DNA from: a virus
Taxonomy: Duplodnaviria > Heunggongvirae > Uroviricota > Caudoviricetes
IMG/VR virus record: IMGVR_UViG_2695420859_000007
Coordinates: 1-7,682 of that record
Direction: 5' to 3' (one strand)
Length of the DNA: 7,682 nucleotides
In this document: positions 207 to 5,818 of the stretch, one piece after another
Numbering within the stretch: the stretch's first letter is position 1
Layout: every line of letters starts with the position of its first letter
Notes under the pieces: generated by a model
Database searches by the model: none
The model's input: only the letters and a program-made list of their open reading frames with translations
What the model was told of the DNA's origin: nothing
Made by a program: the position numbers and the translations under genes

Positions 207-431
207 TCAACACACTGGCTGTAATGCAGCGGATACCATGCGGCATTTAGCGGCATTCATCGTACACTCCACGGTTAGCTCTTCATTCGTGGCATTCACC
301 TGAAAGGTCCGGGAGTGTAATTGCGTACATTTACCACTGAACGAACCTTCAACAAGAACACGACCACGCTGCAAAATACGGAACGGAATTGTTCCCTGAA
401 AAGGTTCTACGGTTACCCGTAATTTCTTCAT
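207..431 (-). CDS. Hypothetical 74-aa protein, translationally coupled to Rz
   Basis: Its ATG overlaps the Rz stop (ATGA), and GGAGGA lies 4 nt upstream. Translates as [74 protein letters not shown], with four Cys. I do not recognise it, and it is not Bor-like. Confidence 0.45.
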
Positions 432-922
432 GTATCCTCCGGATAATAAAAAGCCAGCTTAGTGCACTGAGTGCGGATATATTCCTGCGCCCCTTCCAGC
501 TGCTTCTGCATTGTCATCAACCGTTCTCTGAGGATGAAATAATCCCGTTCAGCGGTGTCTGCCAGTCGGGGGCCGGTTGCATTATCCACGCTGGAGGTGC
601 CGGTGGCTTCACGCACGGTACCGGAGCAGGTGGCGTTGATCCGCAGGCGCTTACGACCAGCGGCAACATCAGCGCGCAGAGTTTCATTTTCAGCTCTCGC
701 ATCGGCTAATTCCTTCGTGTATCTGGCATCAAGTGCAGCAACATCACGCTGGCGCTGCTGCATATCAGTAATGGTTGCATTTGCCTGCTCCAGCTCACTG
801 ACTTTTTTATCGCGCTGCTCTTTGTAGGTTATGGCGTTATCACGGTAATGATTCAGCCCCAGACTAAGCACACCACAGGCTACCAGCAGGACAATAATCA
901 CCACACACAGAACACGGTTCAT
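428..922 (-). CDS. Rz: Spanin inner-membrane subunit Rz (i-spanin)
   Basis: From the ATG at 922: [39 protein letters not shown]...[17 protein letters not shown]...[18 protein letters not shown], closely matching lambda Rz. SD GGTGGTGA upstream. The track's GTG start at 1006 is a spurious 5' extension. Confidence 0.9.
517..702 (-). CDS. Rz1: Spanin outer-membrane lipoprotein subunit Rz1 (o-spanin), embedded in the +1 frame of Rz
   Basis: [22 protein letters not shown]... with a lipobox (VSAC) and a Pro-rich body ([27 protein letters not shown]) matching lambda Rz1. Confidence 0.85.
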
Positions 923-923
923 A

Positions 924-1010
924 TCACCACCAACGGATTGCCCAGACCAGAACAGCAATGGCCACAATACGAATAGCAAATGCCATTGCCCGAATAAGTT
1001 CAGCACTCAT
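924..1010 (-). CDS. Small hydrophobic ORF-3 (28 aa), ending 1 nt before the Rz ATG
   Basis: Translates as [28 protein letters not shown]. It shares the motif RA[LM]AFAI[KR].VA[VI] with ORF-2. It sits in a third frame and may be a frameshifted fragment. Confidence 0.25.
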
Positions 1011-1021
1011 CTTTTTAAAGT

Positions 1022-1144
1022 TCACGATTTCAGCGCAATGACCAGTTTTGCCAGCCCATACAGCATCGGAGACACAGCAATACCAACAGCCACCCACTTA
1101 ATAGCAAAAGCCAGCGCTCTGCTGATGTCATCAGTCACTGTCAC
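1022..1144 (-). CDS. Small hydrophobic ORF-2 (about 40 codons, GTG start overlapping the ORF-1 stop)
   Basis: GTGA overlap with the ORF-1 stop. Translates as (M)TVTDDISRALAFAIKWVAVGIAVSPMLYGLAKLVIALKS*. It is the C-terminal part of track ORF 1022..1294. Confidence 0.3.
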   Translation of the reverse strand: MTVTDDISRALAFAIKWVAVGIAVSPMLYGLAKLVIALKS

Positions 1145-1272
1145 CCCAGCAGCCCCGACGAAGACAACATCACCCAGGCGAGGGACAGAAAAAGAGCAAC
1201 CAGCATTAGTGAAAATGAAATACCGACAATCACACACAGGACCTTTGCCGGCGTTATGAGTTTGTCTGACAT
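1141..1272 (-). CDS. Small hydrophobic ORF-1 (42 aa), single predicted TM
   Basis: ATG at 1272 preceded by a strong SD (AAGGGG, 5-nt spacer). Translates as MSDKLITPAKVLCVIVGISFSLMLVALFLSLAWVMLSSGLLG*. Absent from the ORF track because it is short. Confidence 0.4.
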   Translation of the reverse strand: MSDKLITPAKVLCVIVGISFSLMLVALFLSLAWVMLSSSGLLG

Positions 1273-1439
1273 AGCTACCCCTTAATTGCCACAATTAACT
1301 GGGATACTACCCATAAAAAAGGGATGCTCCAGACCAGCAAAAATTTCCAGTTTGGTAATTGACTAATCATGAGTCGCAACTCCCTAATCAGTTTGCTAAA
1401 ATCAATCAAGGCAGCCTCCCATAGCTTACTGCCATAAAA

Positions 1440-1476
1440 ACAAAACCCCGCTTGCTGCCAACAAACGGGGTTTTTA
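1440..1476. terminator. Hairpin with flanking A- and T-tracts (potentially bidirectional intrinsic terminator) downstream of R
   Basis: Plus strand AAAACCCCGcTTG-CTGCCAA-CAAaCGGGGTTTTT. On the minus strand it lies about 90 nt after the R stop. Confidence 0.5.
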
Positions 1477-1564: not shown

Positions 1565-2098
1565 TTATCTGTCGATTCCCCAGCACGCCAGCGCGCTCTC
1601 CTGGTCACGACGGGATACCTGACCGTAACAGTTATTTGAGCGAATACGGCAGTCTCTGCCACCGTCCTTAATCCACCAGCGAATCGCCTCACATGCTCCC
1701 CTGCGATCACCAGCATTAATTCGTCTGTAAAACGTCGACGGGAAACACTTACCGGGACCAATGTTGTACGGACAGAATGACGCGATCCCCGCTTTCTGGG
1801 GTTCGGTCAATGGCACTTTGATGTTTTTCTCCACCCATGCCAGCGCCTTATCACGTTCGATGGCGTTAACCTGGTCGCATTTCTCCTTCGACAACTTCAT
1901 GCCCGGGACGACAGGTTTACCATCCACCAGAATGGCACCGCGACAGATGGTCCAGATACCCGCGCCATCACGGTATGCCGTGGTGTGGTTACCTTCCTTT
2001 TCATCCAGAAACTGGTCGAGAATGTCAGGCGCAGGCGCACCAGCGGCAATCAGCGCCAGAACGGCAGCCGACAGGCCGTATTTGATTTTGGTGTTCAT
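1565..2098 (-). CDS. R: SAR endolysin, GH24 T4-lysozyme-like muramidase (Stx-phage R type)
   Basis: 177 aa. The N-terminal Ala/Gly-rich weakly hydrophobic segment (YGLSAAVLALIAAGAPA) is typical of a signal-anchor-release domain. The catalytic spacing E-x8-D-x5-T sits in EGNHTTAYRDGAGIWT. The rest matches lambdoid and Stx-phage lysozymes. Confidence 0.9.
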   Translation of the reverse strand: MNTKIKYGLSAAVLALIAAGAPAPDILDQFLDEKEGNHTTAYRDGAGIWTICRGAILVDGKPVVPGMKLSKEKCDQVNAIERDKALAWVEKNIKVPLTEPQKAGIASFCPYNIGPGKCFPSTFYRRINAGDRRGACEAIRWWIKDGGRDCRIRSNNCYGQVSRRDQESALACWGIDR

Positions 2099-2134: not shown

Positions 2135-3124
2135 CTAAATACGCACTTTAAGATAAGTCAGCCCCGGATGAAGCCAGTAAGCCGGCACTTTTTTAAAAGG
2201 TGGAGTATTAAAATCACGAAGAAGAGCCTCCCGCACAATTGCATCCTTATCAGCACCACTGGCCAGCGCTTCAATCTCAGCGGCTACCTGAAGATATCCC
2301 ATGCAACGGCCCACGCGCTTCATCAGCCCCTGCTTTTTATTGTTCTTCAGGTAATCAATGGCAAATTCAATGAGCTCCTCACTGTGCTGGTGCGATGGAG
2401 GTGTTACTTTCCCATTTTCTGAGATGGTTATTTTCCCGGCATCACCGGATACAACAAAGGATGGCCGGTTACACTCCCATTCCAGCTCACTGAAATTATC
2501 ATTATGAATACTGAAACACTCTGCGAGATTTCTGCTCATCACTTTCCGGCAATAATCGTAAAACGCAGCAAACTGCTCATCGCGGCGTTTTTTTTCAGGC
2601 TGCTGAAGATGCTCTTTCAACCATGAAGCGCAGCTTAGATTCGCCGCGCGATCAGGAATAGCTTCTTTCATTTCGTCTGCTGCAAGCACCTCATTTTTTG
2701 TTGGGGTGCTTTTTTTCAATTCAGCGATATAGCACTCCAGTTTTTCAATACGCGATTCAACATCATCTTTTTCTGACCGCAGTGTTGACGGCGGCATCTT
2801 CAGAGAACAAGTAATTCTTCCCGGTAGCTTTCCTTTGTAGGTTATCAATACATCCTGCGCATCTAAAATTACGGGGCGCTTTTCCGGTGACGGTTCATCC
2901 CCTTCGCATAACCCGGCAACAATATCCATGAAAAACTGCTTCGCCTGTTTTTTCGCCTCAGCTTCGTAGAACTCCAGCGTGGCACCTTCAGTACGGTCAA
3001 GACTAATCGCCACATCTGGCAACAACAGTGACGGATACCCACCAATTTCCAGTGCCACAGTAACAGTAATCTTATCCGGGTAATTATTTATCCCTTTAAC
3101 ACCCAGTTCGTATTTTTTCTTCAT
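2135..3124 (-). CDS. Hypothetical protein, 329 aa, moron inserted between holin and endolysin; function unknown
   Basis: Long uninterrupted ORF on the operon strand. Its ATG lies 4 nt after the holin stop, with GGGGAG about 7 nt upstream. No signal peptide or TM segment. It has a charged, helical central region (SRIEKLECYIAELKK...EKKRRDEQFAAFYDY). I found no Walker, HNH or other motif I can trust. The DNA looks more AT-rich than the flanking lysis genes by eye. Confidence 0.7.
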   Translation of the reverse strand: MKKKYELGVKGINNYPDKITVTVALEIGGYPSLLLPDVAISLDRTEGATLEFYEAEAKKQAKQFFMDIVAGLCEGDEPSPEKRPVILDAQDVLITYKGKLPGRITCSLKMPPSTLRSEKDDVESRIEKLECYIAELKKSTPTKNEVLAADEMKEAIPDRAANLSCASWLKEHLQQPEKKRRDEQFAAFYDYCRKVMSRNLAECFSIHNDNFSELEWECNRPSFVVSGDAGKITISENGKVTPPSHQHSEELIEFAIDYLKNNKKQGLMKRVGRCMGYLQVAAEIEALASGADKDAIVREALLRDFNTPPFKKVPAYWLHPGLTYLKVRI

Positions 3125-3128
3125 CGCT

Positions 3129-3335
3129 TTACTCCCCCCGCGCCGCCTTACGACGGTCCTCCCTGATTTTGAAATACAGGTTAGTCAGATACGTCAGCAG
3201 GCCAAACAGCAGACTTCCCAGCACACCTATTGCCACCCACTGGGACGGAGAGACTTTGTCCAGCAGCTGCAGTAACCAGTATCCCGTCCCCACCGCTGAC
3301 GTGGTGTATGACACACCTGTTGTGATTTTTTCCAT
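3129..3335 (-). CDS. S: Holin, phage-21 S21-type pinholin (class II, two TM domains)
   Basis: 68 aa, [68 protein letters not shown]. This is near-identical in pattern to S21 (..[52 protein letters not shown]). Confidence 0.85.
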
Positions 3336-3380
3336 CTGATGTATGTCTCCGTCACCGCCGACAGAAAATGAAAGTAAAGA

Positions 3381-5491: not shown

Positions 5492-5595
5492 CTACAGCCC
5501 AAGAAATGAAAAAAGGCCACGCAGTTGCGCAGCCTGATAAACCCTGGTTAAAATCCACACGATAACAACACAACAATATCAGTATCTCATGCTAT

Positions 5596-5621
5596 TGCCC
5601 GAACCCATTCGGGCATTTTTT
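5596..5621 (+). terminator. Rho-independent terminator (plus-strand orientation), convergent with the one at 5628..5651
   Basis: Plus strand TGCCCGAA-CCCA-TTCGGGCA followed by TTTTTT. Confidence 0.5.
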
Positions 5622-5627
5622 ACCCAT

Positions 5628-5651
5628 AAAAAAGCCCCTCCGGAGAGGGGC
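5628..5651 (-). terminator. Rho-independent terminator (minus-strand orientation)
   Basis: Minus strand GCCCCTC-TCCG-GAGGGGC followed by TTTTTTAT: a 7-bp GC-rich stem, 4-nt loop and U-tract. Confidence 0.55.
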
Positions 5652-5818
5652 ATGTTTGCATGCACATTCTTTTTCTTGCATGGTGCCGGGTGCCTCCCGG
5701 TGAATTCAGTATCAGCACCTGAATCCGCGATTATCACATATACCTGGTTGCTGATTGCCCCTCCGCACAGGGGGATTCACCATGCAGTAGTATTTTTAAT
5801 AAACAGTAAACAAAAAAA

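Follow-up and report, generated by a model that had tools for sequence, protein, structure and literature searches.

What occupies the DNA between the endolysin gene R and the spanin gene Rz in this phage, and do the small open reading frames found there represent genes? A preliminary description held that Rz normally follows R directly, which is true for prophage Qin, with its 4-nt overlap of rrrQ and rzpQ. In the window, i.e. the whole stretch of 7,682 nt that was analysed, the two genes are separated by 642 nt, and three tiny hydrophobic ORFs in three different frames had been described between them, either as one gene for a multi-TM protein of about 110 aa, decayed by frameshifts, or as a set of translationally coupled small membrane peptides.

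Anatomy of the small-gene cluster

All genes of the locus read on the minus strand, and the following features were identified.

3129..3335, minus strand: class II (S21-type) pinholin, 68 aa (PF04971, E 8.8e-33)
1565..2098, minus strand: R, SAR-type phage lysozyme, 177 aa (PF00959, E 1.4e-24)
1442..1474, minus strand: putative intrinsic-terminator hairpin with U-tract, ahead of the small-gene slot (terminator scan)
1275..1409, minus strand: ORF-0, 44-aa microprotein gene with TTG start (translation; phrog_6632, E 1.3e-12)
1141..1272, minus strand: ORF-1, 43-aa single-TM microprotein (translation; phrog_4906, E 4.5e-21)
1022..1144, minus strand: ORF-2, 40-aa single-helix microprotein with GTG start (translation; phrog_1115, E 1.1e-24)
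924..1010, minus strand: ORF-3, 28-aa microprotein, short ORF-2 paralogue (translation; phrog_4493, E 3.8e-6)
428..922, minus strand: Rz i-spanin, 164 aa (PF03245, E 3.4e-51; phrog_13, E 3.6e-77)
517..702, minus strand: presumed Rz1 o-spanin, embedded in Rz (ORF listing: lipobox and proline-rich mature part)

The pinholin of the window has ATA, not ATG, as its in-frame upstream codon, and there is thus no dual start. The N-terminus of R, YGLSAAVLALIAAGAPAP, is rich in Ala, Gly and Ser, and PGAP annotates the gene as 'lysozyme'. The phrog_13 match to Rz is full-length, from residue 1, and the ORF inside Rz at 517..702 is taken by us to be Rz1 from the established knowledge of this gene. An upward shift of the Rz start to GTG 1006, giving a 192-aa ORF over ORF-3, was rejected, as the frame has a pN/pS above 1 and the Rz profiles align from the ATG at 922.

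Translation confirmed the hydrophobic ORFs in their three frames. All three are real, and only their count was wrong, since a fourth gene, ORF-0 (1409..1275), had been missed just upstream. The four genes are separate, conserved in frame, hydrophobic and tightly packed: the gaps in the series ORF-0/ORF-1/ORF-2/ORF-3/Rz are 2, -4, 11 and 1 nt, and within the cluster the SD of the next cistron falls within the 3' end of the preceding one. The tail codons IKG plus stop derive from the AAGGGG of ORF-1, and RWW plus stop from GGTGGTGA of Rz. ORF-3 is without an SD and that of ORF-2 is weak, so that translation of both would rest on coupling.

ORF-0 starts with TTG, 5 nt downstream of the SD GGGAGG, and an internal ATG at 1370 may serve as an alternative start, which would give 31 aa. 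Its homologues of 44-45 aa in Salmonella, Citrobacter, Enterobacter, Klebsiella and Providencia share the conserved N-terminus MIDFSKLIRELR; N-terminus and TM segment are kept across six genera, and the family has 2 different N-termini. PGAP gives no annotation for ORF-0 in the RefSeq E. coli record identical to the window. ORF-1 (1272..1141, MSDKLITPAKVLCVIVGISFSLMLVALFLSLAWVMLSSSGLLG and stop) is 43 aa long, not 42 aa as first given, and the SD AAGGGG described for it is present at 1283-1278, 5 nt before the ATG. It corresponds to PGAP protein WP_001280935.1. Of its 106 relatives all named ones are from E. coli; the length listed is mostly 43 aa, and many of the relatives belong to separate 90%-identity clusters.

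ORF-2 (GTG, 1144..1022, VTVTDDISRALAFAIKWVAVGIAVSPMLYGLAKLVIALKS and stop, 40 aa) overlaps the ORF-1 stop with its GTG as described, the overlap reading GTGA with the TGA of ORF-1, and its frame is open for 90 codons, running across ORF-1. Relatives of ORF-2 start at ATG N-termini of their own, e.g. MKNGLELKAPVTDD.. or MNAELLRA.., of which the family has at least 4, and the comparison indicates that ORF-2 of the window is a 5'-truncated paralogous copy. In PGAP the protein is a 51-aa form from TTG, in other sources the 40-aa form; the TTG start is over-long. ORF-3 (RefSeq WP_032140280.1) ends, as stated before, at 28 aa just ahead of Rz, its TGA lying 1 nt before the Rz ATG at 922. A 37-aa full-length form (phrog_4493, E 5.5e-16) is located directly before Rz in phage GER2, and P0072 is an intermediate form. 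The motif RA[LM]AFAI[KR].VA[VI], noted earlier as shared by ORF-2 and ORF-3, is real: ORF-3 matches the same PHROG families as ORF-2, from which the two are judged to be true paralogues and the motif a reflection of their homology.

For each of the four proteins one TM helix is predicted, with the best 17-aa Kyte-Doolittle window averaging 1.9-2.8, GRAVY of 0.9-1.6 and a net charge of approximately +1 to +3, and the AlphaFold2 model of ORF-2 is a single helix over residues 3-39 (pLDDT 93). PHROG profiles match over most of each protein, i.e. phrog_6632 for ORF-0, phrog_4906 for ORF-1, and phrog_1115, phrog_3246 and phrog_4493 for ORF-2 and ORF-3, all annotated as 'unknown function'. In the longer of these profiles (67 and 90 positions), some of the underlying gene calls seem to have been over-extended, reading through ORF-1 in the wrong frame. 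None of the four ORFs had a match in Pfam (none at E <= 1), NCBIfam or PADLOC, and no paper on their proteins was found in the literature on lysis cassettes, small proteins and EHEC/UPEC Ribo-seq.

Coding evidence and distribution

In the reading frames given above, pN/pS was 0.24 for ORF-0, 0.36 for ORF-1, 0.23-0.28 for ORF-2 and 0.31 for ORF-3, as obtained from non-independent pairwise comparisons of short, recombining sequences, with only 3 unique DNA variants behind the value for ORF-0 and 6 behind that for ORF-3. The other two same-strand frames gave 0.5-8.3 over all four ORFs (0.87 and 1.65 for ORF-1, 1.1 and 1.4 for ORF-3), and the neighbouring lysis genes S, R and Rz gave 0.12, 0.12 and 0.36, respectively. 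These ratios indicate that all four frames are under purifying selection at an Rz-like level. Across 70 independent viral contigs (23 haplotypes) the interval 924-1272 had 10 variable sites in 349 nt and no indel, which excludes the homopolymer sequencing error that had been raised as a concern. In more than 170 loci the ORFs are intact, with rare exceptions (a premature stop in one ORF-2 and a read-through fusion in one ORF-3), and a start codon was retained after every one of at least 5 independent N-terminal replacements.

The genes are widespread in prophages. Proteins identical to ORF-1, ORF-2 and ORF-3 (WP_001280935.1, WP_042004856.1 and WP_032140280.1) were each present in about 1000 or more contigs, and at least part of the cluster was found in 1745 of 5426 complete E. 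coli genomes (32%), with the full four-gene arrangement in 588. PhiR5_1, a phage deposited as an isolated genome, keeps the cluster at 96% identity. Scans of genome contigs with a protein pattern confirmed nothing, and those with a degenerate DNA pattern gave no more than chance matches in three Firmicutes. The ORF family is evidently missing from the genomes that represent E. coli and Salmonella in GTDB.

Gene orders were collected in a census of 180 loci, which is biased because each scan contributed only its best 80 matches. With O0 to O3 standing for ORF-0 to ORF-3, the order S21-R-O0-O1-O2-O3-Rz was present in at least 60 of the 180 loci, GH108-O2-O1-lipoprotein in at least 38, S21-R-ant-O1-Rz (Stx2 phages) in at least 16, S21-R-O2-O1-Rz in at least 11, and R21-O2-Rz, from Salmonella, in at least 4, in addition to O3-Rz in phage GER2. 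ORF-1 sits between ant and Rz in Stx2a phages; the O104:H4 outbreak phage P13374, like PhiR5_1 deposited as an isolated genome, is one of them and has the gene under the name ORF53. The same slot takes unrelated cargo, i.e. ant in the Stx2 phages and a Rha-like gene in PhiR5_1. The small-gene families adjoin four unrelated endolysin types, with or without Rz; an ORF-0 homologue behind a GH19 endolysin in Enterobacter lies outside the census. Among the loci examined, more than 170 were in a lysis cassette and one was outside, the latter being a Citrobacter ORF-0 homologue in an insert that separates tail genes I and J and is flanked by terminators.

A fused ORF was sought with ORF-1 and ORF-2 as queries among 5.8 billion proteins, and nothing longer than 73 aa was obtained. 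A profile search of 1.84 billion representatives likewise returned no fusion, its longest match being 87 aa. The N-terminus of this match is non-hydrophobic and equals the ORF-2-frame reading across ORF-1, and we therefore read it as an over-extended gene call. In these searches no relative thus showed an intact, collinear ORF of about 110 aa, the longest relative being the one of 87 aa.

Expression and possible roles of the microproteins

The hairpin at 1442..1474 has an MFE of -24.2 kcal/mol (z = -5.05). In Escherichia, Salmonella and Enterobacter a similar hairpin is located behind endolysin genes of four different types, one of its base pairs covarying (UG/GC/AU/GU/UA), and the distance from hairpin to first start codon is about 30 nt here and about 35 nt in related arrangements. 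A scan of 800-1700 for sigma-70-like sites gave none on the coding strand. The conserved intrinsic terminator and the short leader ahead of the slot suggest that expression of the small genes is probably late and Q-dependent, and with no promoter-like site on the coding strand and a terminator directly upstream, expression in the lysogen is unlikely. Since the hairpin is flanked by an A-tract and a U-tract, it could terminate transcription on both strands. One promoter-like site was found on the plus strand (1266-1295), against a chance expectation of 0.9 per region. Rfam over the whole window returned nothing in 924-1600 and only STnc100 and AgvB elsewhere.

We favour, by slightly better than an even chance for the reading as a whole, four independent microprotein genes of three small families with an accessory role in lysis. 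The structural part of this explanation is very probably correct, and the coupled small membrane peptides of the preliminary description are borne out by the anatomy (gaps, nested SDs, one TM each, purifying selection). The function as lysis modulators is tentative, with a probability somewhat below even. In this explanation, lambdoid prophages of E. coli, Salmonella and relatives carry the ORF families in shuffled combinations in one late-operon slot, preceded by endolysin gene, terminator and short leader and usually followed by Rz, and recombination has produced the arrangement of the window. ORF-2 is a duplicate that lost its first 10 codons and is now read from the GTG overlapping the ORF-1 stop. 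The genes would be transcribed only upon read-through of the terminator by Q-modified polymerase and translated by coupling, together with Rz. The microproteins would then insert into the inner membrane as non-essential accessory lysis factors, e.g. tuning holin/pinholin triggering or spanin activity. As R and Rz abut in Qin, the small genes are dispensable for lysis in principle.

The tie of the small genes to the lysis cassette is positional only, and they could instead be generic, moron-like late-operon cargo with an inner-membrane action unrelated to lysis, such as keeping out superinfecting DNA or modulating a host membrane protein, the R/Rz site being a permissive recombination slot. The moron product HK97 gp15 is a small inner-membrane superinfection-exclusion protein and counts for this reading, together with the acceptance of ant and the Rha-like gene by the slot and the pairing of the families with four unrelated endolysin types, with or without Rz; the Citrobacter insert between tail genes fits generic cargo better than a lysis-specific role. 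However, exclusion and conversion usually act in the lysogen, where expression of the genes is unlikely given the upstream terminator and the lack of a promoter-like site, PADLOC gave no match, and the more than 170 loci in a lysis cassette stand against a single one outside, so that we consider cargo rather unlikely. Alternatively, the ORFs might be functionless recombination scars or hitch-hikers, kept for the downstream translation-initiation regions and especially that of Rz. ORF-2 as a 5'-truncated duplicate, ORF-3 as a shortened paralogue without an SD, gene tails encoded by the SD of the next gene, and the uniformity of the cluster within its type (10 variable sites in 349 nt) are as such scars would appear. 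It is nevertheless difficult to reconcile with purifying selection in the correct frame in all four genes, seen with divergent variants and at an Rz-like level, with an ORF-0 N-terminus and TM segment conserved across six genera, with the start codon that is always present after replacement of the N-terminus, and with the intact ORFs in more than 170 loci, and is considered highly unlikely.

The remains of one frameshifted gene of about 110 aa would account for adjacent ORFs in three frames that are all hydrophobic, and for an ORF-2 frame open over 90 codons across ORF-1. This half of the preliminary description fails, in that neither the 5.8 billion proteins nor the 1.84 billion representatives held a fused homologue, and the genes occur singly, in reversed order or with other neighbours. 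Each ORF moreover has its own conserved start and stop and a frame under purifying selection, all 70 contigs show the same frames, and 588 complete genomes contain the cluster in full; the probability left to a decayed gene is close to nil. The small size and strong hydrophobicity of the peptides would also suit one or more depolarising toxins of type I, under the control of an antisense RNA terminating at the bidirectional-looking hairpin, which could terminate both strands; the plus-strand promoter-like site at 1266-1295 counts for this reading as well. However, a single such site is what chance predicts, Rfam gave nothing in 924-1600 and Pfam no toxin, whether Hok-type or other, and the genes are part of a polycistronic late operon, not a stand-alone unit. 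In other arrangements, which have a different gene order, only about 35 nt lie between hairpin and first gene; there is thus no conserved antisense unit, and the toxin reading appears very improbable.

Burst size of phages is set by lysis timing, and in Stx phages, we infer, the same timing also sets toxin release. If holin, SAR-endolysin or spanin function is modulated by the microproteins of the favoured reading, a lysis pathway commonly taken to be complete with S, R and Rz/Rz1 would gain a layer, which the recent findings on Lcc6 and releasin make plausible. In a further-reaching form, regarded as improbable, the one-helix microproteins would be a combinatorial toolkit and a new class of trans-acting modulators of the lysis clock; the ORF-2 helix, for example, could co-assemble with the pinholin or titrate it. 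Prophages that are otherwise similar would then have their lysis time, and through it phage yield and the release of Shiga toxin, tuned by shuffling of the set. Even without a role in lysis, the cluster illustrates well how poorly annotation deals with conserved proteins of 28-44 aa, with ORF-0 unannotated in RefSeq, an over-long TTG start for ORF-2, and out-of-frame extensions in PHROG profiles.

Comparison with known systems

S21-71, lambda S107, T4 RI and P1 LydB, LydC and LydD are small membrane proteins with which lysis cassettes tune their timing, and the ORFs resemble such antiholins and accessory holin-like proteins in being small membrane proteins of a cassette. They differ in having no match to a holin Pfam family or a PHROG 'lysis' family, and no highly charged tail (C-terminal flanks with a net charge of 0 to +2 over 0-8 residues). 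The ORF-2 helix KWVAVGIAVSPMLYGL gave a BLASTP E-value of 0.001 with pinholin TMD2 in a single comparison, and 9 of 5000 composition-preserving shuffles scored as high. The DNA-level shuffle test was marginal (36/3000), hhalign of ORF-2 against S21 gave 6% probability, and the profile search of 1.84 billion proteins with ORF-2 recovered no holin. Given the hhalign and DNA-shuffle values, the likeness is unconvincing, and ORF-2 as a mimic of TMD2 was set aside and kept as a lead. On one metagenome scaffold (L180) an S21 N-terminus is joined to an ORF-2 C-terminus at a shared AGTGGGTGGC, which may be an assembly chimera. Replacement of a lost antiholin start by the cluster was also rejected, as the MYQM dual start is retained in most loci of this kind, ATA as in the window being present in only 7, so that cluster and dual start are not correlated.

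With 28-44 aa, 0-17 non-TM residues and no lipobox, and with canonical Rz/Rz1 immediately downstream, the ORFs are not of spanin type. In size and hydrophobicity they fall within the range of type I toxins (<=60 aa), each having one TM, and they are separated from these systems by being embedded in a late operon, with no antisense sRNA found by Rfam in 924-1600 and no stand-alone unit. Classical morons, e.g. lambda bor/lom and HK97 gp15, are expressed from the prophage, each with a promoter of its own and a terminator behind it. The small genes share with morons an insertion between genes that overlap in Qin, as well as a mosaic cluster that is mobile between phages and one homologue in a hairpin-flanked tail-gene insert; in the window no promoter was detected and the predicted terminator lies upstream of them.

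The disruptin gp28 of phage phiKT, a cationic amphipathic, membrane-associating protein of 56 aa, replaces spanins at the outer membrane (bioRxiv 10.1101/515445), whereas the proteins described here are hydrophobic, of TM type and low in net charge, and occur together with Rz/Rz1. Lcc6 of the Shewanella prophage LambdaSo is a small single-TMD protein of a lambda-like phage with pinholin, SAR endolysin and Rz/Rz1; it has 65 aa with a 43-aa cytoplasmic tail, is encoded near xis and is strictly required for lysis (bioRxiv 10.1101/2024.01.23.576932). Compared with it by description only, the ORFs of 28-44 aa have almost no soluble part, are located within the lysis cassette, from which Lcc6 is far, and are clearly dispensable in related phages. 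Gp25 of phage Mu, releasin (DUF2730), is a small membrane protein that aids the SAR endolysin (bioRxiv 10.1101/2024.01.23.576932). The four ORFs are without a DUF2730 match, and their families also accompany GH108 and GH19 endolysins, the GH108 enzyme of the ORF-bearing loci having no N-terminal hydrophobic segment as read from its sequence. With Lcc6 and Mu releasin, pinholin/SAR systems offer a precedent for accessory lysis factors that are small TM proteins.

Lysis cassette and the small genes between R and Rz

The lysis and late region genes of the window were all located on the minus strand, with four tiny genes between those for the lysozyme R and the spanin Rz.

Features of the lysis and late region
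7404-6583, minus: Q-type antiterminator
5412-3628, minus: SASA-family esterase
3335-3129, minus: S21-type class II holin (PF04971, E 8.8e-33)
3124-2135, minus: 329-aa DUF1327 protein between holin and lysozyme, with N-terminal DUF1327/YdfR domain (phrog_1085, E 7e-182, full length)
2098-1565, minus: phage lysozyme R (PF00959), N-terminal segment Ala/Gly-rich
1474-1442, minus: strong intrinsic-terminator hairpin with U-tract (A-tract on the other side), 3′ of R in mid lysis cassette; -24.2 kcal/mol, z = -5
1409-1275, minus: ORF-0, tiny hydrophobic, 44 aa; TTG start, GGGAGG (SD) 5 nt upstream; ends 2 nt before the ORF-1 ATG
1272-1141, minus: ORF-1, 43 aa; SD AAGGGG 5 nt before the ATG
1144-1022, minus: ORF-2, 40 aa; GTG overlaps the ORF-1 TGA as GTGA
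1010-924, minus: ORF-3, 28 aa; TGA 1 nt before the Rz ATG (922)
922-428, minus: Rz (PF03245, E 3.4e-51)
702-517, minus: Rz1, inside Rz
207-431, minus: 74-aa ORF, 4-nt overlap with the Rz stop

Over the 721 bases queried, the window was 100% identical to a prophage carried by E. coli O39:NM F8704-2 and by several further strains. In PGAP annotation the equivalent of 2135-3124 is a truncated YdfR pseudogene that extends over no more than the first ~112 codons. The holin is without the usual dual start, its in-frame upstream codon (3336-3347, minus strand) being ATA (..DIHQME..), not ATG (..MYQME..), as in only 7 of ~95 related loci. Downstream of the antiterminator gene in late-gene direction, Rfam identified the sRNA STnc100 (5622-5811, minus strand, 147.8 bits) and an adjoining AgvB anti-GcvB sRNA, a perfect match on the other strand (5560-5621, plus strand, 96.5 bits). 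The 74-aa ORF matched only the middle (positions 100-172) of the 291-position profile phrog_2571, and may on this alignment be part of what was once a longer gene.

The three ORFs of the preliminary description were present as described, except that ORF-1 translates to 43 aa rather than 42; most ORF-1 relatives are likewise listed with 43 aa. All three are hypothetical proteins in PGAP, ORF-2 being given a longer TTG start. ORF-0 lacks PGAP annotation in the identical RefSeq record and is annotated by other sources, e.g. as B7UR31 in E. coli E2348/69. Homologues with the conserved N-terminus MIDFSKLIRELR occur in six genera. Those from Salmonella, Citrobacter, Enterobacter, Klebsiella and Providencia have 44-45 aa and share the start M(I/V)DFSKLIRELR, and this N-terminus of the wider family maps to the TTG in the window.

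One strongly hydrophobic segment is present in each protein, and the AlphaFold2 model of ORF-2 is one unbroken helix (residues 3-39, pLDDT 93). The motif common to ORF-2 and ORF-3 reflects real homology, as both match the same PHROG profiles; phage GER2 has a 37-aa full-length ORF-3-type gene directly 5′ of Rz, and the Salmonella sequence P0072 is intermediate between the two types. Homopolymer sequencing errors, for which a check had been advised, were excluded by 0 indels in 924-1272 among 70 independent viral contigs (23 haplotypes), and the cluster was found in 588 complete genomes.

Unique DNA variants from ~180 related loci (80 best matches of each scan) gave pN/pS ratios in the stated frames of 0.24 (ORF-0), 0.36 (ORF-1), 0.23-0.28 (ORF-2) and 0.31 (ORF-3), from pairwise, non-independent comparisons of short, recombining sequences with few variants for ORF-0 and ORF-3. 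In the other two frames of that strand the values ranged from 0.5 to 8.3; by the same method S and R each scored 0.12, and Rz 0.36. The ORFs were intact in the 170+ loci, with few exceptions (a single premature stop in ORF-2 and a single read-through fusion of ORF-3).

Gene arrangements and recombination

The arrangements were collected from the 80 best matches of each scan, and are hence skewed to close relatives.

Arrangements of the small genes (S21, class II pinholin type; T, terminator hairpin; O0-O3, ORF-0 to ORF-3)
S21-R-T-O0-O1-O2-O3-Rz: type of the window
S21-R-T-O2-O1-Rz: phage PhiR5_2
S21-R-T-O2-O1-O2-O3-Rz: among the arrangements seen
S21-R-ant-O1-Rz: Stx2 phages such as P13374
S21-R-Rha-like-O0-O1-O2-O3-Rz: phage PhiR5_1
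R21-type lysozyme-T-O2-Rz: Salmonella
S21-R-T-O3(37 aa)-Rz: phage GER2
holin_8/holin_3_7-GH108 endolysin-T-O2-O1-lipoprotein: without PF03245-type Rz
GH19 endolysin-T-O0, then spanin-like overlapping pair: Enterobacter
ORF-0 homologue (L188, 2501-2638): Citrobacter, part of an insert that separates the lambda-like tail genes I and J and is flanked by hairpin terminators; no other copy among the loci collected was outside a lysis cassette

A single decayed gene of about 110 aa, one of the two readings proposed at first, was rejected and is very improbable: no fused homologue was found among 5.8 billion proteins, nor in a profile search of 1.84 billion representatives, and the genes are modular across arrangements. 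They are several separate small genes. The longest match, from the profile search (87 aa), looks, by its reading frame, like an over-extended gene call in the ORF-2 frame.

In other contexts ORF-2 has 48 aa (MKNGLELKAPVTDD...) and an SD and ATG that belong to it alone. The homology of the window ORF-2 begins only at codon 11 (VTDD), immediately 3′ of the ORF-1 stop, and loci L005 and L006 still have a full copy 5′ of ORF-1; the window ORF-2 is therefore a 5′-truncated duplicate, now read from the GTG overlapping the ORF-1 stop. ORF-0 has two alternative N-termini, and in the ORF-2/3 family at least four N-terminal types are combined with two or three C-terminal types. Each gene has its final codons supplied by the ribosome-binding block of the gene that follows. 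The ORF-1 block AAGGGG encodes IKG-stop, and is non-coding where ORF-2 is 5′ of ORF-1; the Rz block GGTGGTGA encodes RWW-stop, an ending common to ORF-3, P0072 and the homologues of ORF-0 in Citrobacter, Enterobacter and Klebsiella.

The lipoprotein after ORF-1 in the GH108-endolysin cassettes without PF03245 Rz (L085 3306-3461, L089 3331-3486, L184 2452-2607) has 51 aa, a lipobox LVGC and three further Cys (phrog_7528, unknown function); L184 is the Stx2e phage phiP27, where it is gene L32, and GER2 and L151 carry a copy 3′ of Rz. The lipoprotein might have a part in disrupting the outer membrane. On the Salmonella chromosome (L189/L190, 2501-3101), an ORF-2/3-type gene (49 aa, RWW end) and Rz alone form a prophage remnant next to an IS110 element and to host genes (tmcA and one of the SopD family); the exact 49-aa protein occurred in 1647 blocks of the collection. 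In a 554-nt metagenome scaffold (L180, 43-222), the N-terminal half of an S21 holin and the C-terminal half of ORF-2 are joined at the common AGTGGGTGGC into a chimeric ORF, which may have arisen by a true deletion through recombination or else in assembly.

Terminator and expression

All four unrelated endolysin types have a similar hairpin 3′ of them, and one pair covaries where the consensus stem meets the loop side, at its inner end. In every case a short conserved leader and then a small gene come after the hairpin (window; L085/L089/L093/L099/L187). The first small gene of other arrangements lies ~35 nt from the hairpin, across a conserved leader that includes an SD; in the window the distance to the ORF-0 TTG is ~30 nt. 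A promoter scan of the region returned no sigma-70-like site on the coding strand, and the small genes, like Rz, would be made only upon read-through by Q-modified polymerase. The intercistronic distances down to Rz are 2, -4, 11 and 1 nt, and translation is therefore probably coupled down to Rz. The other early proposal, a set of translationally coupled small membrane peptides, thus holds as to separate small genes, with coupling suggested by the cistron spacing.

Possible function and known systems

We regard the products of the four genes as microproteins that are probably made late, by coupled translation, and located in the inner membrane. Searches of Pfam, NCBIfam and PADLOC with the four ORFs gave no match, the PHROG families matched are all of "unknown function", the source names are always "hypothetical", "uncharacterized" or "transmembrane protein", and a literature search on these small proteins found no paper. 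An accessory role around lysis is the most likely function, proposed tentatively and at less than even chances. Carriage as unrelated late-operon cargo ranks next and is in itself rather unlikely; the Citrobacter tail-region copy of ORF-0 and the promiscuity of the slot speak for it. Scars without function are improbable, and type I toxin-like peptides still more so.

Databases already list the sequences as hypothetical proteins, and the objects are thus not new. New are the count of four genes rather than three, their division into three mobile families, the defined slot with a terminator in front, and recombination both at their own N-termini and at their neighbours' initiation regions; new, too, is that a pseudogene can be discounted. 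Of complete E. coli genomes, 32% have the cluster at least in part, and one member is found in Stx2a phages. To a specialist, small membrane ORFs among lysis genes are no great surprise; the set bears on the question of whether S, R and Rz/Rz1 are the complete lysis story, and the test is cheap.

The ORF-2 helix shows weak similarity to pinholin TMD2, a likeness that may serve as a lead only, and among related loci no correlation was seen between the cluster and a lost dual start of the holin. In function, the nearest precedents are small accessory lysis factors with a single TM, i.e. Lcc6 of the Shewanella prophage LambdaSo and the Mu releasin. Lcc6 (65 aa) acts at holin level in a pinholin/SAR system (bioRxiv 10.1101/2024.01.23.576932). 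Its gene is located elsewhere in the LambdaSo genome, whereas the small ORFs here are inside the lysis cassette, and the releasin carries DUF2730, whereas the four ORFs are without a Pfam match. The disruptin gp28 of phiKT, in turn, is a cationic amphipathic peptide (bioRxiv 10.1101/515445), unlike the four small proteins.
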